DNA of 24,000 bases from an uncultured beta proteobacterium (GTDB lineage: Bacteria > Pseudomonadota > Gammaproteobacteria > Burkholderiales > Casimicrobiaceae). The translations under genes were made by a program, and so were the position numbers. The notes below the pieces were generated by a model. That model did no database searches and was not told where the DNA came from. It worked only from the letters and a program-made list of their open reading frames with translations. Below, in pieces: positions 13,055-23,783 of this stretch. The DNA lies in NCBI GenBank assembly GCA_963728935.1, contig CAVSMC010000001.1, forward strand, positions 3,121,591-3,145,590. Direction: 5' to 3'. How positions within the stretch are numbered: the first letter of the stretch is position 1; each line of letters starts with the position of its first letter.

Positions 13055-14077
13055 ATGAGCATTCACGACGAACTCGCGGCGACCATCAAGAAGCTGACCG
13101 CGCCAGGCAAAGGCATCCTCGCGGCGGACGAGAGCATGCCCACGATCACCAAGCGCTTCACGGCGGTCGGCATCGAATCGACCGACGAAACGCGGCGCGC
13201 CTATCGGAACCTGCTGTTCACCGCGCCGGACGCCGACCGCTATCTCGCCGGCGTCATCCTGTTCGAGGAGACGCTCGATCAGAAGGGCGACGACCAGACG
13301 CTCTTCGCCGAGGTGCTCAATCGGCGCGGCATCGTACCCGGGATCAAGGTCGACAAGGGAACCGTCGCGCTGCCGAACGCGAGCGGCGATCTCATCACGC
13401 AGGGCCTCGACGGATTGGGCGAGCGCTTGAAGACGTACAAGGCAAAGGGCGCCCGGTTCGCCAAATGGCGTGAGGTCTATCCAATCACCGATCGCAATCC
13501 GACCCGGCTCGGCATCGAAGCGAACGCCGAGGTGCTCGCGCGCTACGCGACGATCTGCCAGGATCAGGGGATCGTTCCAATCGTCGAGCCCGAGGTGCTG
13601 ATCGACGGCGACCACACGATCGAGCAATGCTACGAGGCGACCGACGCCGTGCTGCACGCGGTGTTCCACGCCCTGCATCGGCATCGCGCGATCCTCGAAG
13701 GGCTCGTGCTGAAGCCGAACATGGTGCTGCCCGGCAAGGAGCGTCCGCCCAAGGCGAGCCCCGAGACCGTTGCCCGAGCGACGCTCGACGCGCTCAAGCG
13801 CAACGTTCCTGCGGCCGTTCCGACGATCAACTTCCTGTCCGGCGGGCAGGCGCCTGTCGAGGCGACCGCGAACCTCAACGCGATGAACGCGATCGGCGGA
13901 GCGCCGTGGATCCTGTCGTTCTCGTACGCGCGCGCGTTGCAGGACGACGCGATGCGCACGTGGGCAGGCCGCACGGAAAACGTGCGCAACGCTCAGGAGC
14001 TCTTCCGCCGCCGGCTCAAGATGAACAGCCTCGCGCGCGACGGCAAGTGGAACGACGCGGCAGAGAAAGCTGCCTGA
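13055..14077 (+). CDS. fba: fructose-bisphosphate aldolase, class I (eukaryotic-type)
   Basis: The sequence GKGILAADESMPTITKRF...GVILFEETL...PGIKVDKG...IVEPEVL...LKPNMV... contains classic class I FBA blocks, including the Schiff-base Lys region LKPNM. AGGAAGGAG lies upstream of the ATG. Confidence 0.9.
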   Translation: MSIHDELAATIKKLTAPGKGILAADESMPTITKRFTAVGIESTDETRRAYRNLLFTAPDADRYLAGVILFEETLDQKGDDQTLFAEVLNRRGIVPGIKVDKGTVALPNASGDLITQGLDGLGERLKTYKAKGARFAKWREVYPITDRNPTRLGIEANAEVLARYATICQDQGIVPIVEPEVLIDGDHTIEQCYEATDAVLHAVFHALHRHRAILEGLVLKPNMVLPGKERPPKASPETVARATLDALKRNVPAAVPTINFLSGGQAPVEATANLNAMNAIGGAPWILSFSYARALQDDAMRTWAGRTENVRNAQELFRRRLKMNSLARDGKWNDAAEKAA

Positions 14078-14150
14078 CGCAGCGCCTCGTATCCGTTGTC
14101 TTCTTCTCCTGCGGCGCGATGAGGGCCCCCTGTCCCGCGGCGCTATGAGC

Positions 14151-14183
14151 GCGACCCTCTCCCGCTCCGCGGGAGAGGGTCGC
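14151..14183. repeat. REP-type hairpin downstream of fba
   Basis: gcgaccctctccc (14151-14163) pairs perfectly with gggagagggtcgc (14171-14183), giving a 13-bp stem and a 7-nt loop. No T-tract follows, so it may or may not terminate transcription. Confidence 0.75.
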
Positions 14184-14582
14184 GGTGAGGGCTTATCCGC
14201 TCAAGCGCCCGACCGACTTGCCGGTCGTCTCGAAGATCGTCGCGAGATCGCCCTTCGCATGCAGTAGCCGAAGAACAGGGACAGAAAGAATCCAAGGCAA
14301 CGCGCCGGCGACCACGGGCCCGCGTGCGGCGAATGCGCATCGTTTGAAGCGTTGGAGGGCTTCGGCGCGACGCTGGCTCAAAGCGAACGCGCCGGCGACC
14401 CTGCGATCCCGCCGTAGCTGACAAAGCGCGACGAGACGCCCCGAGCGTCGCTCGGGCGGATTATTCACGTTGACGCGCCGCTGCCGCGGGTAGACGATCA
14501 ACCGGCTTTGCGCACTGTCATCTACAGCTTGCTTTCCGGCGAGCGCGTGGGCACCATACTTCGACAAATACCGGGAGGGACC

Positions 14583-15776
14583 ATGGCGCGGTCATCAGCG
14601 TCGCATCGCGCGGCGAGATCCGCCACAGTCAGGAAACCCGTCGCGCGCGCCGCGTGGCCGTCCGGCGTCGATCTTTCCGGTCTGGCCGTTTTCGAGCGAC
14701 TTTTCGTGCGCATGCCGGTGCGGCTGCTGCGCGCGCGCAACAACGCGATCGACCAGCTGTTCTACGACGTCGATGCGATTCCGCCGGCGAAGCGGCGCGA
14801 GCTCCTGCAATGGTCGGACCCCGACGGATCGATCGTCGTCGTGCATCCGGGCAGCGCAGACGCGCGCGAAGTCGCTCACTTCACGCAGTTCGATGCGTTC
14901 GTCGCATGGCGCGAGCGCAATCCGATCGAGATCGTCGCGATCGCCGGCGTCGGAAGCTCGGCGCTCGGCACCGCGGCGCTCGCTGCGAACGTCGCCGATG
15001 CGTTGGGCAAGCCCGTTGCCGGGATCGTCTCCGGATACGGCGTCGCCGACGCGGTGACCGAAGGGTTGGTCGGATGGTTCGTGCTGCGCCCCTACAACCG
15101 GCTGCGCCAGCTCGTCGATGGCTGGCTTGCGCTGTTCGAGCCGATGCTCGCCGCGGTGAGCGCCGACACGCAGCCCAACGGCGACCCGCAACGGCTCGTC
15201 ACATACGTGCGCGGCCTTCCCGAGACGGACACGCTCGATGCGCTGCTGTGCGAGCCGCGCACGCGCCTCGATACACTCGTCGGCCACAGCAAGGGCAATC
15301 TCGGCATCGCCGCGGCGCTCGACAATCTGCCATCGGCCCGCTCGCGCGCGCTGTGTCCGAAGCTGTCGGTCGTCACGCTGGGCGCGCTCGTGCAACTGCC
15401 GGCGACGCTTCGCGACGCGCGTCAGTTCATCGGCATGCTCGATGGCTTCGGGCTCATCAATTCGATTCTGCCGCAAGTCTCGACGGTCGTTCCGTGGGCG
15501 ACACATTCGCTCAACACGCGATGGCCGTTCCATTTGGCGGCGATGCAGACGCTCGCAGCGAACGACGCGATGTCGCGCGCGGCGTTCGATCGTGCGGCGC
15601 ACGCAGTATCCGACGCGATGCAAACGCCGGCGTCGTTTGCGCGCCATTGGATCGACGCGTGCGCGGGCGCGGCGGCGGCGTTCGAGGGCGCGCTCGGCGA
15701 AAGCGTGCGATCGCTGCGGCAGGGCGCGCAGCACGCGGCGTCGAGGGCACGTGCAAACGTCCATCGAACCACGTGA
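14583..15776 (+). CDS. orphan alpha/beta-hydrolase-fold protein (putative Ser esterase/lipase), first gene of the hydrolase cluster
   Basis: The ATG at 14583 is preceded by GGGAGGG. The nucleophile elbow LVGHSKGNLG is a GxSxG motif. Candidate acid and His residues lie downstream (MLDGFG, WATHS). The strand-like blocks IVVVHPG, IVAIAGVGSS and VVTLGA are present. There is no signal peptide. Confidence 0.7.
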   Translation: MARSSASHRAARSATVRKPVARAAWPSGVDLSGLAVFERLFVRMPVRLLRARNNAIDQLFYDVDAIPPAKRRELLQWSDPDGSIVVVHPGSADAREVAHFTQFDAFVAWRERNPIEIVAIAGVGSSALGTAALAANVADALGKPVAGIVSGYGVADAVTEGLVGWFVLRPYNRLRQLVDGWLALFEPMLAAVSADTQPNGDPQRLVTYVRGLPETDTLDALLCEPRTRLDTLVGHSKGNLGIAAALDNLPSARSRALCPKLSVVTLGALVQLPATLRDARQFIGMLDGFGLINSILPQVSTVVPWATHSLNTRWPFHLAAMQTLAANDAMSRAAFDRAAHAVSDAMQTPASFARHWIDACAGAAAAFEGALGESVRSLRQGAQHAASRARANVHRTT

Positions 15777-15830
15777 CGAAGGGGAAGAGGGCGTTATCCC
15801 GAGGTTGTCCCACCTGAGTGAGGCCTTGAC

Positions 15831-17825
15831 ATGAATTACACATATGAACCTTCGCACGGCCCCATGGGGAGCATCGTCTCCATGGACCCGCGCTTGCAGA
15901 AGCTCGTGAGCTTCCGCGCGCTCGGCTTGCGCAAGCGCGCCACCACATCGACCGCGGTCGACGAAGTTGCGATCGTCGCCAAGGTGACCGACGTCGCCAA
16001 GTGGGAAGCGCTCTCCGAGGTCGAACCTGGAACGGTCGTCGGCACGACCGACGCCGACGGCACGACGATCGTCACCGGACGTATCCCGATCGCTCGCATC
16101 GAGCACGTGCGCACGCAACCGTTCGTGCAGAGCCTGAAGGCGGCGCGGCGGTTGAAACGTACGCTCGCGGCGACCACACAGGAGACGCTCGCGCGACCGT
16201 CGCTCCTTCCGGCGGGAAACAAGGCGAAAGGCGGTAAGGGCGCGATCGTCGGCATCGTCGATTTCGGCTGCGACTTCGCGCATCAGAACTTCCGCGACGC
16301 GGGCGGCAAGACGCGCGTGCGTGCGATCTGGAACCAAGCGGGCACGCCCGGCGCCGGCGGCAGCCCGTTCAACTACGGGCGGCTGCATCGCAAACCCGAG
16401 ATCAATCAGGCGCTCAAGAAGGCCGATCCGTACATCGCGCTCGGCTACGGACCCGATCCGAGCGAGCCCGCGCACGGCACGCACGTGATGGACATCGCGT
16501 CGGGCAACGGTCGGGGCACCGGCGTTCCCGGCATGGCGCCGCAGGCGGAGATCGTCTTCGTCGAAGTGTCGTCGAGCGACATTGCATGGAGCGGCGAGGA
16601 GGCGGTCGGGCAGTCGTTCGGTGACTCGGTGCAGCTTCTCGAGGCGCTGACGTTCATCTTCATCGAGGCGGCCGCGACGCCGTGCGCGATCAATGTGAGC
16701 CTCGGCACCAACGGCGGGCCGCACGACGGCACGACGCTCGCCGAGCAGGGGATCGACCGGTTGCTGCGCCAGCAGCCCAATCGCGCGGTGTGCATCGCGG
16801 CGTCGAATTCGTACGCCGACGGCATCCACGCCGCCGGCATGGTTCCGCAGAACGGCACGTACGATCTCGGCTGGAACGTCGCGTCGAACGACCAGACCGA
16901 AAACGAGCTCGAGCTCTGGTACCCGGGCGCATCGAGGCTCGCCGTCGAGCTGATGACGCCGACCGGCGCGACGATTGCGATGGTGCAACCGGGCGCGAGC
17001 GGGATGGTGATGGCGAACGGTCAGCCGGCGATCTTCATCGCCAATCGGCTGAACGATCCGAACAACGGCGACAACACGGTCGGCATCTTCATGACCGATC
17101 ACGCGCAGGGCGGTCGCTGGATCGTGCGTCTGCATGGCGATCAGACGCTCGCCACGCCTTTCCATGCATGGGTCGAGCGCGACGACTTCGGCCAATCGAG
17201 CTTCGACGCGCCGACCGACAATGGCTACACGGTTGGCTCGATCTCGTGCGGGCACGAGACGATCGTCGTCGGCTCGTATGACGCGCACAAGACCGAGACG
17301 CCGCTCTCCTGGTTCTCGAGCGCGGGACCGACGCGCGACGGCCGGCAGAAGCCGGAAGTTTCTGCGCCGGGGCACGCGGTGATCGCGGCGGCGTCGCGCA
17401 GCGTCAACGGCACGACGAAGATGTCGGGCACCAGCATGGCCGCGCCGTGCGTCACCGGGCTCTGCGCGCTCGTGCTCGCCGAGGCGAAAGCGCGCAACAG
17501 GACGCTCGCGATCGCCGACCTGCGAAGCGCCGTCGTCGACACGGCGCGGCGCGATCCGCCCGGTGGCACGGTATGGGACAACCGCTACGGTATGGGACGC
17601 GTATCGGCGAAGGCGGCCGTCGCGCGCGCGGGTACGACCGCGCAACCGGTCGCCGGGGTGCGCAGACCGCAGACACGGCCCGCGGTCATGTACGCCCCCG
17701 AAGCGCCGGTCGCGCTCGCAGGACGTGCAAGCGGCCGCGGAATGAAGCCGACGACAGCGCAGGCCGATGTCCGTCCGGCGGCGAAGCCGAGGCAGCGTGG
17801 GAAGCCCGCGAACCGGCGTGTCTAA
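15831..17825 (+). CDS. S8 (subtilisin-like) serine peptidase, signal-less, with an N-terminal I9-like prodomain and a basic low-complexity tail
   Basis: The catalytic triad occurs in D-H-S order: VGIVDFGCDFAH (the Asp codon is 16260-16262), HGTHVMDIASG and SGTSMAAPCVTG. The oxyanion Asn is in LGTNGGPHDG. The N-terminus MNYTYEPSHGPMGS.. has no hydrophobic leader. Confidence 0.9.
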   Translation: MNYTYEPSHGPMGSIVSMDPRLQKLVSFRALGLRKRATTSTAVDEVAIVAKVTDVAKWEALSEVEPGTVVGTTDADGTTIVTGRIPIARIEHVRTQPFVQSLKAARRLKRTLAATTQETLARPSLLPAGNKAKGGKGAIVGIVDFGCDFAHQNFRDAGGKTRVRAIWNQAGTPGAGGSPFNYGRLHRKPEINQALKKADPYIALGYGPDPSEPAHGTHVMDIASGNGRGTGVPGMAPQAEIVFVEVSSSDIAWSGEEAVGQSFGDSVQLLEALTFIFIEAAATPCAINVSLGTNGGPHDGTTLAEQGIDRLLRQQPNRAVCIAASNSYADGIHAAGMVPQNGTYDLGWNVASNDQTENELELWYPGASRLAVELMTPTGATIAMVQPGASGMVMANGQPAIFIANRLNDPNNGDNTVGIFMTDHAQGGRWIVRLHGDQTLATPFHAWVERDDFGQSSFDAPTDNGYTVGSISCGHETIVVGSYDAHKTETPLSWFSSAGPTRDGRQKPEVSAPGHAVIAAASRSVNGTTKMSGTSMAAPCVTGLCALVLAEAKARNRTLAIADLRSAVVDTARRDPPGGTVWDNRYGMGRVSAKAAVARAGTTAQPVAGVRRPQTRPAVMYAPEAPVALAGRASGRGMKPTTAQADVRPAAKPRQRGKPANRRV

Positions 17826-18051
17826 AATCACCGGCAGCATCTCGGCGACGCCGCTTCCCGGCGCCGCCGAGACCGTCAGCGTCATCGTGAAGGTTGCGAA
17901 GCCCGGCTACGTACCGCCGGGCTTTCGCGTTCGCGCGCGCGTCGACGAGCAGATGTTCACGGCGGATTGCGACGGCGCCGCGCTCGAGCGCGTCGAATCC
18001 GACCCCGACGTCGTATCCGTCGCGCTTGCGCGCAAGCTGCAATCGTCGTAG
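17818..18051 (+). CDS. small (about 77 aa) I9/prodomain-like protein, paralogous to the N-terminus of the adjacent S8 peptidase
   Basis: The frame is open from 17767. Candidate starts are ATG 17767 (59-nt overlap with the S8 gene), GTG 17818 (8-nt overlap, chosen) and GTG 17887, which would cut the first beta-strand. VSVIVKV...AALERVESDPDVVSVALARKLQ aligns with the S8 residues VAIVAKV...ARIEHVRTQPFVQSLKAARRLK, with 9 of 22 identical in the second block. Confidence 0.55.
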   Translation: MSKITGSISATPLPGAAETVSVIVKVAKPGYVPPGFRVRARVDEQMFTADCDGAALERVESDPDVVSVALARKLQSS

Positions 18052-18072
18052 CGCATTCGACTGCAAAGGCGA

Positions 18073-20742
18073 ATGGATACCGAAATCGGCGACGCCGCCT
18101 GCTACACCGACGAAGCCGCCCGCGTCGGCCGCCGGCGCACCGCCCTTGGTCTCGATGCGGACCAAGCCCGCCGTGCGCTCGCGCTGTCCGGCGGCGGAAT
18201 CCGCAGCGCGACGTTTGCGTTGGGCGTGCTGCAGGCGCTTGCACGCAAGCCGCTCACGGCTAACCAGGCGCCGCAAGATGCGCGTACGCTGCTGTGGAGC
18301 TTCGATTACTTGTCGACCGTGAGTGGCGGCGGCTACATCGGCTCGTTTTTCGCAAGCCTTTTCGTTCCCGGCCGGCTCGACTTCACCGCGCCTGCGCCGG
18401 TGCCGGCCGCTCCGCTTGCCGGCGCCGCTCCTGCGGCGGCACCGACCGCAGCCGCACCGACGGGCGTGCCGCAGGCGAGCATCGACGCGGCACGCCGCGC
18501 CTACGACGTCATGGCGTACGAGCCGCCGGGTCGCATCCGCGCGACGGAGAATTACGCGACCGGCAATCCCGGGCGCGGACCGCTCGCGTGGTTGCGGGAG
18601 AACGGACGCTACCTCACGCCGACCGGCGCCGGCGACCTGCTCTATGGAATGGTGCTCGCGATCCGCAACTGGCTCGCGGTCCATTACGTGATCGGCACAT
18701 TGTTCGTGTTCGGACTGTCGGCGATCGCGCTCGCGCGCGGCGCGCTGATGTTCGTCGATTCGGTCGGCGATTACGAGCAGGCGCTGCTGCCCGCGTCTCC
18801 CGAGGGCGGCTATTGGTGGTGGAGCCTGCTGTGGTGGCTGCCGATCGCAATGGCCGCGGCATGGGTCGTGCCGGTCGGCGTCGCATTCTGGCTCACTCAT
18901 CCGCGGTCCTCCGGCTCGGTCAGGGACCCGCCGCGGCCGCTCACCGTTGCATCGACGGCAGCGGTTGTCCTCGGATTGATTCTTGCCGGGGTCGCCGTCT
19001 GGGCGGCCTGGCCCGACGGCATCGACGGCATTCTCGAGCGCGTGACCGATCCTTACGGCAACGTCCATTGGACCAACCCGCCCGCGCTGTCGGCCGCGAT
19101 CGCATCGGTGATGGCGTTGTTCGGCTTCGTGTTCTTCGTCGGCTCGCAGCGGCAGGCGGCGAGCATTTCCGATCATCGCGTCATCCTCACCCGCGAGCTC
19201 GCCCGGGCGTTCAAGTGGACGATCGCGCTCGCGCTCGTCGCATTGGTCGACTCGCTTGGCCAGAGCGCGTATTTGTGGCTGATCGAGGGCGGCGTGAAGC
19301 AGCTCGCGCCGATGTCCGTTCTCGTCGCGGCGATGTGGTTGATACGAAAGGCCGCTTTCGTGCTCGACGAGCGGGCGAAGCCGGGATGGCTCGCGAAAGT
19401 GCCGCTCGGGATCGGCGCGACCGCACTCGGCGCGTTGCTGCTGGTTCTCGTGGCGGTGATCTGGGAGTTGCTCGTTCACTGGCTGCAGTGGCGCGGCAAG
19501 CTGCCCGACCCGGTGGCGCTCGTCGATCCGCAGCGGCTCGTGATCCTGCTCGCGCTGACGCTGATGGCGTTCGTGCTCGCATGGACGGCCGGCCGCTTCC
19601 CGGGATTCGTCAACCTGTCGACGCTGCAGTCGCTGTACGGCGCGCGGTTGACGCGCGCGTATCTCGGCGCGTCCAACGGCCGCCGGTTCGCCGCCGGAAC
19701 GCAGGGCAACGACATCCGAAGCGTCGCCGAGCCCGATGCGCGGGACCAGTTGACCCACGCTCAGTACTACGCGCCCGACGTGCTCGCGCCGTTGCACATC
19801 GTCAACGTGACGGTGAACCAGACGAGCGACCCGGCCGAGCAACTGACGCAGCGCGACCGCAAGGGGCGGCCGCTCGCGATCCTTCCGTCCGGATTCACGA
19901 TCGACGGCACGTTCGCGCCATTCCGCGCCGTGGCCACACGCAGCGAGCTCGACACCGAGCTCACGATGGGCGAATGGATCGGGACGTCCGGAGCCGCGTT
20001 CACCACCGGCCTGGGTCGCGCGACGAACCTCGGCATCTCGCTCGTGCTCGGTCTCGCGAACGTGCGCCTCGGCGTGTGGTGGCGCTCGGGCTGCGGCGTC
20101 GATCTCGCGCGCGGGCTCGACCGCTTGTTCGAGAAGGTCTTCCGCAGCCAGTCGTTCCTCGCGCAGGAGCTGATCGCCCAGTTCCACGGGCTGCGGCGGA
20201 CATGGCAATACCTGTCCGACGGCGGTCACTTCGAGAACACGGGCATCTACGAGCTGTTGCGGCCGGAGCGCGACGTCCGCTCGATCGTCGCCTGCGACGA
20301 CGGCTGCGACCAGTCCTACGGATTCGGCGATCTCGCGAACCTCATTCGTCTCGCGCGGATCGACTACGGCATCGAGATCGAAGTCGACGCGGCCGCTGCA
20401 GCCGATCCCGTGCTGGGCGAGGTGTTCGGCACGATGGCGGAGTTCGCGAAGCGCAAGCGCAACGATACGAAGTGTGCGCTGCTGTTGAACGTTTACGACA
20501 CCAGACCGGTGCGCGCCGCACAACCACGGTGCCGGATCATCGTGATCAAGCCGCGGATGGTGAAAGGCCTTGCAATCGACGTCGCGAACTATGCCGCGTC
20601 GCACGAGCTCTTTCCGCAGGAGCCGACGTCCGATCAGTTCTTCGATGAAGCGCAGTGGGAAGCGTATCGCAAGCTCGGCATGGAGCTTGCAACGCGCGTT
20701 ATCGATTGCTGCAGGCGCAGCGCGGCCACGCCGCTGCTCTGA
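18073..20742 (+). CDS. patatin-like phospholipase with a polytopic transmembrane insertion between the catalytic Ser and Asp
   Basis: The oxyanion motif is LSGGGIRSATF (18187-18204). The nucleophile is in STVSGGGY, with Ser84 at codon 18322-18324. The catalytic Asp is in YLSDGGHFENTG, with Asp716 at codon 20218-20220. Between them lie about 8 hydrophobic helices (about 18637-19595), for example WWWSLLWWLPIAMAAAWVVPVGVAFWL and VPLGIGATALGALLLVLVAVIWELLV. Confidence 0.9.
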   Translation: MDTEIGDAACYTDEAARVGRRRTALGLDADQARRALALSGGGIRSATFALGVLQALARKPLTANQAPQDARTLLWSFDYLSTVSGGGYIGSFFASLFVPGRLDFTAPAPVPAAPLAGAAPAAAPTAAAPTGVPQASIDAARRAYDVMAYEPPGRIRATENYATGNPGRGPLAWLRENGRYLTPTGAGDLLYGMVLAIRNWLAVHYVIGTLFVFGLSAIALARGALMFVDSVGDYEQALLPASPEGGYWWWSLLWWLPIAMAAAWVVPVGVAFWLTHPRSSGSVRDPPRPLTVASTAAVVLGLILAGVAVWAAWPDGIDGILERVTDPYGNVHWTNPPALSAAIASVMALFGFVFFVGSQRQAASISDHRVILTRELARAFKWTIALALVALVDSLGQSAYLWLIEGGVKQLAPMSVLVAAMWLIRKAAFVLDERAKPGWLAKVPLGIGATALGALLLVLVAVIWELLVHWLQWRGKLPDPVALVDPQRLVILLALTLMAFVLAWTAGRFPGFVNLSTLQSLYGARLTRAYLGASNGRRFAAGTQGNDIRSVAEPDARDQLTHAQYYAPDVLAPLHIVNVTVNQTSDPAEQLTQRDRKGRPLAILPSGFTIDGTFAPFRAVATRSELDTELTMGEWIGTSGAAFTTGLGRATNLGISLVLGLANVRLGVWWRSGCGVDLARGLDRLFEKVFRSQSFLAQELIAQFHGLRRTWQYLSDGGHFENTGIYELLRPERDVRSIVACDDGCDQSYGFGDLANLIRLARIDYGIEIEVDAAAAADPVLGEVFGTMAEFAKRKRNDTKCALLLNVYDTRPVRAAQPRCRIIVIKPRMVKGLAIDVANYAASHELFPQEPTSDQFFDEAQWEAYRKLGMELATRVIDCCRRSAATPLL

Positions 20743-20866
20743 ACACAGTTGCCGGCAGTGAGCATTCCGTTTCGTTTGTAGTCATCGGGATGCCATCATC
20801 CGCGCGTAACTTGGTGAACCGATCGGTGATTTGCCGCTCATAGTGACTCGTAGCAGGAGGTGCCGA

Positions 20867-21088
20867 ATGCATTCACCGGACGATTGCCATCAAGCGGCCG
20901 CCCACCATTACGAGCTCGCGGCTCGACATCACCGCGCCGCCGCCGAGCATGCGGCGGAGGGCGATCTCACGCTCGCCGAGGAGTTGATGCGGCTTGCCAA
21001 CGGCCACGCGGCGCGCGCGGGCAGGTTCGCGCTCCGTGCCGCCGTGCAAATACCGCGCGGCGCGAACGACGAAATCGACGACGATTAG
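20867..21088 (+). CDS. small His/Ala-rich helical protein of unknown function
   Basis: AGGAGG (20855-20860) lies 6 nt before ATG 20867. The 73-aa sequence is MHSPDDCHQAAAHHYELAARHHRAAAEHAAEGDL... with an acidic tail NDEIDDD. The HHxxAAxHH periodicity resembles small His-rich proteins I have seen in beta-proteobacteria. Confidence 0.6.
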   Translation: MHSPDDCHQAAAHHYELAARHHRAAAEHAAEGDLTLAEELMRLANGHAARAGRFALRAAVQIPRGANDEIDDD

Positions 21089-21611
21089 CTCAGCTAGACG
21101 GCTAAGGCGCGCGTCGCACGCGGATCTCGTGCCACGTGCGATCGCGGGCGAGTGAACGCGAGTTTTGGCGAGCTCCGGCATGTGCGTAGCGTCGCGATGT
21201 TGCTTGCCAGCCGTCGAGCGCGCTCGTTCTTCGGCGTCACCTGTGTTGTTTGCGAGGTGGTTAGCAAAAGTGCTAACTCCCACCTCGGACATGACCCATC
21301 GTCCGCACGGACGAGCTTGAGCCAAAATGACGCGCTTTGCGAGTGCGTTTTTGGCCCTTGCGCCGGTGCACTCGCCATCGTTTCGTGGCGATGCGAACGA
21401 GCTCGAGCTGTCTGGGGAGCGCCGTCGAAGCCGCGCGCTGAAGGCGTTCCTAGCACCGTGGTTCACGTCAAAGCGAGCGGGGCAGGGTCGGCAGCCCAAG
21501 TTCGCAATTTTGCGAACAGGTCCTTAGTTAGGCTATGCGATTCCTGTAGCCGATTCCAAATCAGGTTCAGAGCGACGTCAATGCCATGTACGTCTGTTTT
21601 CGACCCCCCGA

Positions 21612-21968
21612 TTACTTGCCTTCCGTCTCCGGCAACGGATTGAGTTGCATGACCTCGATGGACGCCCGCGGGATTCCGAAGTGTGGGTGGCCCTCGAAGG
21701 CTCTTGCGGCCGCATCGTGCGATTCGGCTTCAAGGATGGCATAGAGCATGATGTCGTTTCTCGTGTCCGCGACGCCTTCTGCCGTTACACGCTTGGTCTT
21801 GCCCACACCGGCGCCCTTGTCGGCGAATAGCTTGGCGTGATCCGCCATCCAGTTCCTCCAATCCCGCATCATCTTCTCCTCCGCCTCCTTACGCTTTTCG
21901 GCGGGGGTCTTCATCCATTCGTCTATCACCGCGGCGGGCGCAGTGTACAAGACAAGGAATCTGCTCAT
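21612..21968 (-). CDS. small hypothetical protein (possible ferredoxin-like alpha+beta fold)
   Basis: 118-aa ORF with GGAAAGGAG upstream of the ATG. Its composition is sensible: MSRFLVLYTAP...IMLYAILEAESHDAAARAFEGHPHF...IEVMQL. GC is lower than in neighbouring genes. I do not recognise the family. Confidence 0.65.
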   Translation of the reverse strand: MSRFLVLYTAPAAVIDEWMKTPAEKRKEAEEKMMRDWRNWMADHAKLFADKGAGVGKTKRVTAEGVADTRNDIMLYAILEAESHDAAARAFEGHPHFGIPRASIEVMQLNPLPETEGK

Positions 21969-22184
21969 ATCCGGGCTCCTTTCCCGAGGGGCGATAGCCC
22001 GCGCTCACGTTTGGCCCGGGCCTACGAGGCATTGGGCATGATCGTCAAGGCCGGAGTTCCTCGGGATCAAGAATTAGTCGTAGCAAAGTCCGCTGCGGCG
22101 CCGGTGAGGAGCATATCCGGGTCGGAAACAGGAAGCTGTCCGACTTACTTTAAACTTAGCCAAGGTGGGCACGCGCGACCGCAC

Positions 22185-23783
22185 CTACGTCGCCGCGCGT
22201 CGTCGCGATGCGTGTGCACCGATGCGCAGCGCGGCAGCGACTTCACCTGCGGCGCGCTGGCCGCTTTCCACCGCCCCGTTGAGATAGCCCGACCACGATT
22301 CCGACGTGTGCTCGCCGGCGAAGTGCACGTTGCCCTCGTGCTCGTGCAGCGCGCCGTTGATCGTCGTGTATTGGCCCGGTTTCAGCAGCGAGTACGAGCC
22401 GAGCGTCCACGGATAGCGTTCCCACGCATTGCGGATCACGCGTCCGTTCCACAGCGACGCGAGGCCCGGCAGCGCGCGCTCGAGATCGGCCAACGCGTCG
22501 CGCGCACGCTCGTCGGGCTCGCCGTCGCCGGCGCGCGTCGCCGTGCTGCCGCCCGAGTAGAAGTTGAGGATGCCGGCAGGCCCCTGCTGCGCGCGCGTCG
22601 CTTCCCAGCTCGTCTGGAACGTGCCTTCGACGCGCGTCTCGCCGTTGGCATTGCGCCGCTCCCACGCGCGCTCGCTGAACTGTAGCTGCAGTTTCGTGTT
22701 GCGGCCCATGCCGAGCTCGCGGACCGCTTTGAGCTTGCGTGGCGTGAATCCGGCGGCGTTGAGGTCGACCCGACGCAACAGCGTGAATGGCAGCGCGAGA
22801 ATCACGCGATCGGCAAGCTCGTCGTGCGTCGATTGATCGCGCGCGAACGTGAGCCGGCAGCGCCCGTCGCCGCGGCGCGCGATCGCGAGCAGCCGCTGCG
22901 ATGTCACGACGCGATCGTCGAGTCGTGACGAGAGCAGGCGAACGATCTGATCGTTGCCGCCGCGCACGTGATAGCGCTGGTCGGACTCTTCGTACGGCGA
23001 GAAGCGGTCACGGGGCGACCCGCGCAGCAGCGCGACGACCGACACGGCACTGATCTCGTACAAGTCGCCGCCCAATTCCTCGATGTACGCGTTGGCGAGC
23101 AGCCGGCCGAGCGGCGAAGCGAGACCTCCGGGAACGCGCGTTGCAATCCAGCGATCGGCGGACATGCGATCGAGCGCGCGCTGTGCCGCGGTCGCACGCT
23201 TGTACGTGGGAAGATCTTCGCCGAGCGCCTTCGCGTCGATATCCAATGCGGGCAGCATGCGCCGGAAGTCCGCGGTCGCCGCGTCGAGCGAGTAGCGACC
23301 GTCGCCGAACACGAACACGGGCCCGGAACCCTTCGCTTCGGCTTCGAGCAGGTCGTCGAGCTCGAGGCCGAGCTCGACGACGAGCGCGCGAATTTCCTCA
23401 TGGACCGTGTCGATCAGCTCACCGCCCCGCTCGGCGATCTGGTTGTCGAACGCGCGCAGTTCGGACCAGCAACGGCCCCCGGCGCGCGGCGACGCGTCGT
23501 AGATCTCGGCGATGATGCCGGCTTTGCGAAGCTCGTACGCGGCGGTGAGCCCGGCGAGGCCGGCGCCGACGACGACGATCTTCGGGGCGACGGCGGCGCG
23601 CGCCGGTGTCGGCCATGCGCCGAACGGCAGCGCGGCGGCGCCGGCGATCGCGAGCGTCTGTTTGACGAATGCGCGGCGTGACGGTGATACCGCGGCGGTA
23701 TCGTGGTCGGGTGCTTCGTGCGCGCGAGCGCGCGCATCGCGCGCGATGCGCTGCACGAGACGCATGAGTGGCGATTGTGCCAT
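22185..23783 (-). CDS. Tat-exported flavin-containing amine oxidase family protein
   Basis: The twin-arginine leader is SRRAFVKQTLAIAGAAALPF..ARA|AV. The FAD dinucleotide fold is KIVVVGAGLAGLTAAYEL...YDASPRAGGR. The C-terminal block is VHFAGEHTSESWSGYLNGAVESG. Confidence 0.85.
   Translation of the reverse strand: MAQSPLMRLVQRIARDARARAHEAPDHDTAAVSPSRRAFVKQTLAIAGAAALPFGAWPTPARAAVAPKIVVVGAGLAGLTAAYELRKAGIIAEIYDASPRAGGRCWSELRAFDNQIAERGGELIDTVHEEIRALVVELGLELDDLLEAEAKGSGPVFVFGDGRYSLDAATADFRRMLPALDIDAKALGEDLPTYKRATAAQRALDRMSADRWIATRVPGGLASPLGRLLANAYIEELGGDLYEISAVSVVALLRGSPRDRFSPYEESDQRYHVRGGNDQIVRLLSSRLDDRVVTSQRLLAIARRGDGRCRLTFARDQSTHDELADRVILALPFTLLRRVDLNAAGFTPRKLKAVRELGMGRNTKLQLQFSERAWERRNANGETRVEGTFQTSWEATRAQQGPAGILNFYSGGSTATRAGDGEPDERARDALADLERALPGLASLWNGRVIRNAWERYPWTLGSYSLLKPGQYTTINGALHEHEGNVHFAGEHTSESWSGYLNGAVESGQRAAGEVAAALRIGAHASRRRAAT

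Follow-up and report, generated by a model that had tools for sequence, protein, structure and literature searches.

A tightly packed run of four genes in a Casimicrobiaceae genome as a probable juxtaposition of three autonomous units

The window examined here, 24,000 nt from the genome of an uncultured beta proteobacterium of the Casimicrobiaceae, contains a run of four genes, designated A to D, which lie in the same direction on the + strand between positions 14583 and 20742. Gene A (14583..15776) encodes an orphan serine-hydrolase-like protein of 397 aa with a GHSKG motif; gene B (15831..17825) a cytoplasmic subtilase (664 aa) of peptidase family S8, in which a prodomain-like N-terminal region precedes a Csp-like catalytic domain, itself carrying an insertion, and the C-terminal tail is basic; gene C (17818..18051) a mini-protein of 77 aa, the conserved partner of B and a separately encoded paralogue of its prodomain-like region; and gene D (18073..20742) a lipase of the patatin/cPLA2 superfamily (889 aa) with a helical membrane insertion. 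An initial annotation had proposed that these genes form one protease-gated phospholipase system acting in conflict or defence. We consider it probable that the region instead brings together, in this lineage only, three units which function autonomously, namely A, the pair B and C, and D.

The coordinates and spacing of that annotation were confirmed, the intergenic gaps A/B, B/C and C/D being 54, -8 and 21 nt. C starts at a GTG within GTGTCTAA, where it overlaps the stop codon of B; its length is 84 aa or 77 aa with other gene callers. A hairpin scan revealed no terminator-like sites on the + strand between the four genes, as had been stated, and one weak site within D at 19253; the regional total is under the shuffle expectation. 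The window has a GC content of ~66% and contains numerous spurious open reading frames (ORFs) overlapping real ones. The four genes are probably co-transcribed from a conserved promoter region upstream of A.

Relatives of this genome share the flanks of the region (a Mo-oxidoreductase through the GSDH and FBA genes on the left; a small ORF, DnaJ, MerR_2 and amine oxidase on the right), and at this single site they form a natural deletion series. The window and a contig designated P0003 possess the complete order A-B-C-D with no break. Locus L164 carries A, B and C and lacks exactly D, the correspondence to the window breaking at 18047 and resuming at 20814, while in L081 and L082 it is exactly B and C that are absent, such that A and D are separated by 21 nt (break from 15739 to 18121). 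In L085 and L086 only the start and a fragment of gene A are left, B and C are intact and D is missing (breaks from 14077 to 15777 and from 18053 to 20781), and in L084 an internal deletion of ~750 nt in A (break from 14944 to 15693) is followed downstream by intact B and C. Exact scars of excision were sought where the indels join, and the idea was dropped, the junction sequences not being alignable.

The genes retained in these relatives exhibit ratios of nonsynonymous to synonymous substitution (dN/dS) of 0.40 for A, 0.15-0.18 for B, 0.28 for C and 0.26 for D, and their synonymous divergence (dS; 0.33-0.75) is similar to the values for FBA and GSDH in the flank (0.55-0.77). These values point to vertical descent with independent losses and not to the decay of one system; the remaining units, each kept under purifying selection, behave as three autonomous units and not as interdependent parts. 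The simplest history that would fit the aligned loci is an ancestral A-B-C-D arrangement in a small clade, followed by independent losses.

Beyond this clade the units are found apart. As its own check, the initial annotation had asked whether the four families recur together as a syntenic module, and two surveys bear on this. For D, whose family comprises more than 4800 homologues, one genome per species was taken, which gave 80 loci with a D homologue of 40-54% identity, and ±10 kb around each was scanned using tblastn and hidden Markov models (HMMs). The hosts include Cupriavidus, Pseudomonas, Aquabacterium, Variovorax, Accumulibacter and Casimicrobiaceae. Neither A nor C occurs near D in any of these 80 loci, an S8 peptidase is present in L001 only and belongs to another family than B, and D stands alone in 79 of the 80, among unrelated, lineage-specific neighbours (IclR, AraC, OPT, TauE, LysE, DUF3087, SLT and a methyltransferase). 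For B, a survey of 80 metagenomic loci of its family from several phyla was made; A or D is found in none of the approximately 76 S8 loci outside the clade of the window. The four-gene order is limited to this one chromosomal site and to the nearest relatives. With its units lost separately at that site and dispersed elsewhere, a single four-gene protease-gated phospholipase system is not borne out.

The identification of B as an S8 subtilase was upheld. It matches Pfam Peptidase_S8 (PF00082) with E=4e-30 and 105.7 bits, against a cut-off of 21.8, and the catalytic triad D144, H215 and S535 (the last in the motif GTSMAAP) is invariant in an alignment of 18 sequences of the family. The top solved-structure match to the family profile is CspB (4I0W; E=6e-49), which covers residues 133-603 and includes the Csp insertion. 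CspB resembles B further in being cytoplasmic or non-secreted and in having an N-terminal prodomain, the corresponding prodomain-like region of B lying at about residues 41-110. CspB is likewise the top NCBIfam match. On these profiles we class B as Csp-like yet not as a Csp, because the NCBIfam scores of CspBA/CspC are far under their cut-offs (NF040809, 109.7 bits versus 1250). In addition, unlike the Csp proteins, members of this family occur in non-sporulating Betaproteobacteria, Actinomycetota, Acidobacteriota and others, no SleC-type substrate is found near B, and a free-standing prodomain paralogue, absent from Csp loci, is present here. Homologues with 55-65% identity to B are found in Actinomycetota, Acidobacteriota, Planctomycetota and Nitrospira, and a search of a phage collection gave S8 matches that were all distant (<28% identity). 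The C-terminal tail of B (17690-17825) is rich in Lys and Arg, and a poorly conserved tail of this type, 40-70 residues long, is shared by the proteobacterial and planctomycete homologues and is lacking in the actinobacterial ones. By hydropathy, A, B and C have no signal-like hydrophobic segment at the N-terminus, and all four proteins appear to be non-secreted, in agreement with the lack of secretion signals previously noted.

Gene C had been described as I9-like. No match was found in Pfam (E<=0.1, I9 family PF05922 included), NCBIfam, PADLOC or PHROGs, and membership of the I9 family stays tentative; the mini-protein was rightly called prodomain-like, and an alignment of 60 sequences of the C family matches residues 41-110 of B (hhalign probability 72%, E=3e-5). 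An exhaustive search yielded 279 clusters of C homologues at 50% identity, all of them small proteins in which the domain ends at or near the C-terminus. By alignment arithmetic, which is approximate, the C-terminus of C corresponds to residue 111 of B and the first residue of mature CspB to residue 113, from which we infer that C ends within about two residues of the Csp prodomain cleavage position.

The functional link between subtilase and mini-protein drawn in the initial annotation has been strengthened. A homologue of C lies directly downstream of the S8 gene, on the same strand, in approximately 64 of the 80 loci surveyed, and most of the others are cut by the end of a contig. Clustering of the S8 neighbours gave the mini-protein and a PLD-like gene as the only recurrent partners; otherwise the pair lies among unrelated genes of housekeeping type (lipoyl synthase, lactate permease, CorA, biotin carboxylase, ThiF and YebC). 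The pair is the only conserved link, and the only real module, among the four genes of the window, and it is a widespread, horizontally mobile two-gene module. The B family is present on 31 plasmid records. On plasmid p1 of Sphingobium fuliginis (L170, 12249-17731) the S8 and mini-protein genes come immediately after a Tn3-family transposase and a resolvase and before IS66 and IS21, and here the pair looks like transposon cargo. On Bacillus cereus megaplasmids a tandem of two S8 genes of the B family is situated beside an integrase, a tyrosinase and an endonuclease.

The analogy that suggests a function for C is provided by other subtilases and their propeptides. One stand-alone propeptide-like inhibitor of a subtilase is PBI2 of yeast. 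In Plasmodium, SUB1-ProM, a stand-alone propeptide-like protein whose gene neighbours those of subtilases, inhibits potently and selectively in trans (PMC6993865), and the prodomain of CspB remains bound after cleavage and sterically occludes the active site (PMC3567191). Because the CspB prodomain occludes the active site, SUB1-ProM inhibits, and C ends where a cleaved prodomain would, C is probably a trans-acting inhibitor or chaperone of B. In this model C would bind mature B in trans with its C-terminal tail placed in the substrate cleft, and would keep the cytoplasmic protease latent as a product-like inhibitor or chaperone-inhibitor; loss or titration of C would then release the protease activity of B. 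Like the stand-alone inhibitors of MEROPS type I9, of which SUB1-ProM is one, C is small, homologous to a subtilase prodomain and encoded beside the cognate subtilase. It differs from them in lacking a Pfam I9 match, in its homology to the N-terminal region of B itself, in belonging to a pair that is bacterial, cytoplasmic, operonic and horizontally mobile, and in that its inhibitory role is a presumed one.

Gene A has no match in Pfam, NCBIfam, PADLOC or PHROG, and a profile search against the PDB gave nothing significant. Its family has at least 243 members, in which the motif GHS236KG, D287 and H308 are invariant and occur in the order typical of alpha/beta-hydrolases, and strands and helices alternate in the AlphaFold2 model (pLDDT 80.5). 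Foldseek returned weak matches only, to esterases, cutinases and the LCAT elbow (E>=0.03, TM<=0.4). The earlier call of an alpha/beta-hydrolase therefore retains its motif support and lacks that of any domain family; it is plausible that A is a serine hydrolase of the esterase or lipase type, with Ser236, Asp287 and His308 as the putative triad. Gene A occurs alone in four unrelated contexts (L165, L167, L175 and L176), from Casimicrobiaceae, Massilia, Teichococcus and another metagenome-assembled genome.

The description of D as a polytopic patatin was correct as to motifs, fold and topology, while the Pfam match is below threshold. The motifs SGGGIRS, VS84GGG and D716GG are invariant in the family alignment (residues S39-G42, R44, S84-G87 and D716-G718). 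The Pfam scores are under the gathering cut-offs, both for Patatin (PF01734, 23.1 versus 27.7) and for PLA2_B (PF01735, 15 versus 23); many homologues of D carry precomputed PF01734 matches. A profile of D gave no significant match among PDB sequences, and neither did PADLOC. Foldseek of the AlphaFold2 model (pLDDT 79) places human cPLA2 (1CJY; E=9e-4, prob 1.0) first and the GIVD cPLA2 (5IZ5) next. Seven hydropathy peaks occur between residues 200 and 507, and in the model a helical block (~186-532) is inserted between two alpha/beta halves, such that a helical membrane insertion of ~300 residues (~200-507) separates the Ser84 and Asp716 halves of the enzyme.

With the patatin/cPLA2 lipases (cPLA2-alpha 1CJY, ExoU, CapV and PlpD) D shares the Ser-Asp dyad motifs GGGxR, GxSGG and DGG, the weak Pfam Patatin/PLA2_B match, and a predicted fold that is nearest to cPLA2. 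It differs in the polytopic insertion of ~300 residues which splits the catalytic domain, and, compared to CapV of CBASS, ExoU and PlpD, in possessing no cyclase, secretion apparatus or autotransporter domain; it is a stand-alone chromosomal gene. A literature search found no paper on membrane-embedded polytopic cPLA2-like bacterial enzymes. Copies of D located beside an S8 gene are the same in length and architecture as those which stand alone. In most Beta- and Gammaproteobacteria D would work as an autonomous inner-membrane Ser-Asp acyl hydrolase with no protease partner, and, judging from fold and context, its role is most likely the turnover or remodelling of membrane lipids.

No named defence system accounts for the cluster, which agrees with the initial annotation. 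Scans of the four proteins against Pfam, NCBIfam, PADLOC and PHROGs yielded generic S8 matches only. PADLOC run on the four proteins matched B alone, through a generic 'subtilase' model (E=1.5e-22) and, weakly, IetS (E=7e-4), in both cases over the catalytic core only, and no listed system is complete. IetAS is a defence system reportedly described by Gao et al. in 2020. The likeness to it consists in an S8-family protease with no signal peptide and the weak IetS HMM match; B is nevertheless of a different S8 family, and no IetA ATPase is found in or near the cluster. CBASS differs in that its patatin CapV is soluble, whereas D is polytopic, and no cyclase lies beside D. A search of the literature found no system combining a patatin with a subtilase, and the conflict-systems paper of Aravind mentions S8 only in a different context. 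A defence role is weakly suggested for the pair B and C only, by its plasmid and Tn3 contexts and by one Septu neighbour described below.

Upstream of A a conserved block of the form TTCACGTTGAC...CTGTCATCTACAG...GGGAGG..ATGGCGCG (~14440-14590) is common to the window, L081, L084 and L085. It occurs once in the window, and it persists even in relatives in which A has been deleted. The palindrome CTGTCATCTACAG (14515..14527, + strand) in this region is a candidate operator, and together with its flanks it may constitute the operator or promoter of the whole gene run. A LexA box was considered for CTGTCATCTACAG and rejected, since the arms are spaced by 5 nt compared to 8 nt in the consensus of beta- and gammaproteobacteria. 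Further upstream, at 14150-14184 and ~70 nt downstream of the aldolase gene, is a hairpin of 16 perfectly paired bp closed by a 3-nt loop (CGCGACCCTCTCCCGC ggg GCGGGAGAGGGTCGCG), which is probably the terminator of the aldolase gene and the left limit of the transcription unit of the cluster.

Nearly the whole cluster is bracketed by a 20-nt inverted repeat (CGCGCGCGCCGCGTGGCCGT and its complement; left arm 14642..14661, right arm 21000-21019, no strand assigned), the arms of which match perfectly. The left arm falls within the 5′ end of A, a poorly conserved stretch, and the right arm within the small ORF downstream of D. A comparable 20-nt inverted repeat was found in none of 200 Markov-simulated sequences of 7.5 kb; the repeat is not conserved in L164, L081 or L085. 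The small conserved ORF (20867..21088, + strand; ~73-76 aa) lies outside the cluster and forms its right syntenic boundary; it is found in L081, L164, L085 and L171, irrespective of the presence of D.

The left flank encodes AurF-like, FadL and DsrE proteins, a molybdopterin oxidoreductase with Fe-S and DmsC subunits, CBS, CreD, GSDH and a class I aldolase, and the right flank of the window an amine oxidase. The flanks are metabolic, as had been pointed out for the left side, and the lower GC content noted to the right of D is confirmed (0.61 at 20743-22185). In L081 and L164 the small ORF is separated from the amine oxidase gene by DnaJ/CbpA-like and MerR_2 genes. These are absent from the window, where they are replaced by ~1.2 kb of 61% GC (20957-22222) with no Pfam or PHROG match; this segment is a second indel hot spot adjoining the cluster. 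An Rfam scan of the whole window gave no match. Neither mobility genes, whose absence had also been reported, nor defence neighbours were found among the genes flanking the locus.

Proteases and lipases do meet again at a few other loci. In the nearest D clade, which is Casimicrobiaceae-like and ~55% identical, L083 (5613-12670; the same locus as L001) and L172/L173 encode a C25/gingipain-like protein of 532 aa (Pfam E=1.5e-9), an S8 peptidase of 501 aa followed by a protein of 73 aa, and, preceded by these two, a protein of 269 aa and a homologue of D that is translationally coupled to the 269-aa protein. The latter has no Pfam match and is read as SGNH-like from its motifs GDSW...GGND...LHPN. 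The B-family HMM matches the 501-aa peptidase with only E=1.6e-4, which places it in a different S8 family. The 73-aa protein is a paralogue of the N-terminus of that same peptidase (blastp E=1e-5), and both end in ...EPxVRRxLH. L174 has no S8 pair and encodes the 269-aa protein, D and a Lipase_3 protein; its C25-like gene is on the other side. In both clades some genomes possess the S8 pair beside D and others do not. A further association concerns the PLD-like protein (~534 aa), which has a weak NAL1_N-like N-terminus and DrmC-like PADLOC matches. It forms a triad with the S8 and mini-protein genes at L168 (Rhizobium leguminosarum pR132503, 37524-43548), L148, L149, L150, L154, L157 and L160. 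At L168 the triad comes after two hypothetical genes, and two genes beyond it is a Septu PtuA gene (E=3e-201).

Several of these data weigh against three autonomous units. The short gaps (-8 and 21 nt) and the lack of internal terminators imply co-transcription, which is often accompanied by shared function; C has no Pfam I9 match, and its inhibition of B is argued by analogy; the lipid-turnover role of D is drawn from fold and context. A second, unrelated S8 gene with its own prodomain paralogue lies upstream of the SGNH-like gene and D homologue in the Casimicrobiaceae clade, and in the seven triads the S8 (60-70% identical) and PLD-like (51-65%) proteins co-diverge, so that the recruitment of S8 and mini-protein pairs to lipid or phosphodiester hydrolases may exceed chance. 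One could therefore envisage the pair as a mobile licensing module which is repeatedly recruited beside such effectors, the protease, once freed from the mini-protein, processing or regulating D in two clades and the PLD-like protein in another. We regard this as rather unlikely. It draws on the two unrelated S8 families of the same design adjoining D homologues in two clades, on the low chance expectation for this (any S8 within 10 kb in only 2 of ~85 D lineages), on the conserved triad with its matched divergence, one copy of which is two genes from Septu PtuA, and on the plasmid, Tn3 and integrase contexts of the pair. Against it, D is intact without the pair in L081, where it is under purifying selection, and in L174, and is alone in 78 further species; the pair is intact without D in L164 and L085 and has no lipase neighbour at most loci; D does not differ in length or architecture between the two settings; and the PLD-like protein, given its DrmC-like matches, could be a nuclease. 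Somewhat less likely still is the broader proposal that subtilases with a free prodomain copy are an undescribed mobile 'latent protease' module, captured repeatedly by hydrolases that attack membranes or nucleic acids, of which the window would be one instance active in conflict or abortive infection.

The lipid enzymes might alternatively form a unit of their own, with A and D as the core of an operon for membrane-lipid remodelling and the S8 and mini-protein pair a passenger that landed between them. The direct adjacency of A and D in L081/L082, the coupling of D in the sister clade to the esterase-like 269-aa gene with Lipase_3 next to it in L174, and an SGNH-like homologue near D in L036 are consistent with this. 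We nonetheless hold it to be quite unlikely, for A is kept without D in L164, L165, L167, L175 and L176, D is kept without A in the 80 species loci, the 269-aa protein has no Pfam match, and the ancestral order was apparently A-B-C-D, the dS of B being equal to that of the flanks, unlike a recent insertion into an A-D pair. Least probable, and very unlikely in our judgement, is one obligate four-gene abortive-infection or toxin system in which a subtilase held by the mini-protein licenses a membrane patatin and the alpha/beta-hydrolase is a further component. Its appeal lies in the co-directional, tightly packed genes with no internal terminators, in products that were all called hydrolases with no secretion signal, in the recurrence of the order in the closest relatives, and in the PADLOC 'subtilase' and weak IetS matches of B. 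The comparative data largely refute it: each of the units is missing from this locus in one relative or another, the others remaining under purifying selection, A, C and D have no PADLOC match, mobility and defence genes are lacking at the locus, the dS is that of the flanks and thus not that of a recently acquired island, and D is a common stand-alone chromosomal gene. A lineage-specific juxtaposition of A, the pair B and C, and D remains the reading that we prefer.

That genes are tightly packed and alike in theme does not make them a system, and the four-gene defence candidate has been dropped. The deletion series at one site (A-B-C-D, A-B-C, A-D and B-C) can be used as the basis for genetic tests. 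The family of D, with more than 4800 matches in hosts such as Cupriavidus and Pseudomonas, is a large uncharacterised group of cPLA2/patatin-type enzymes with a polytopic insertion. The S8 and mini-protein pair is itself an uncharacterised object that occurs in many phyla, on plasmids and beside a Tn3 transposase; it offers a simple two-gene model for how an intracellular bacterial subtilase may be kept latent, and is a candidate addiction or defence module.

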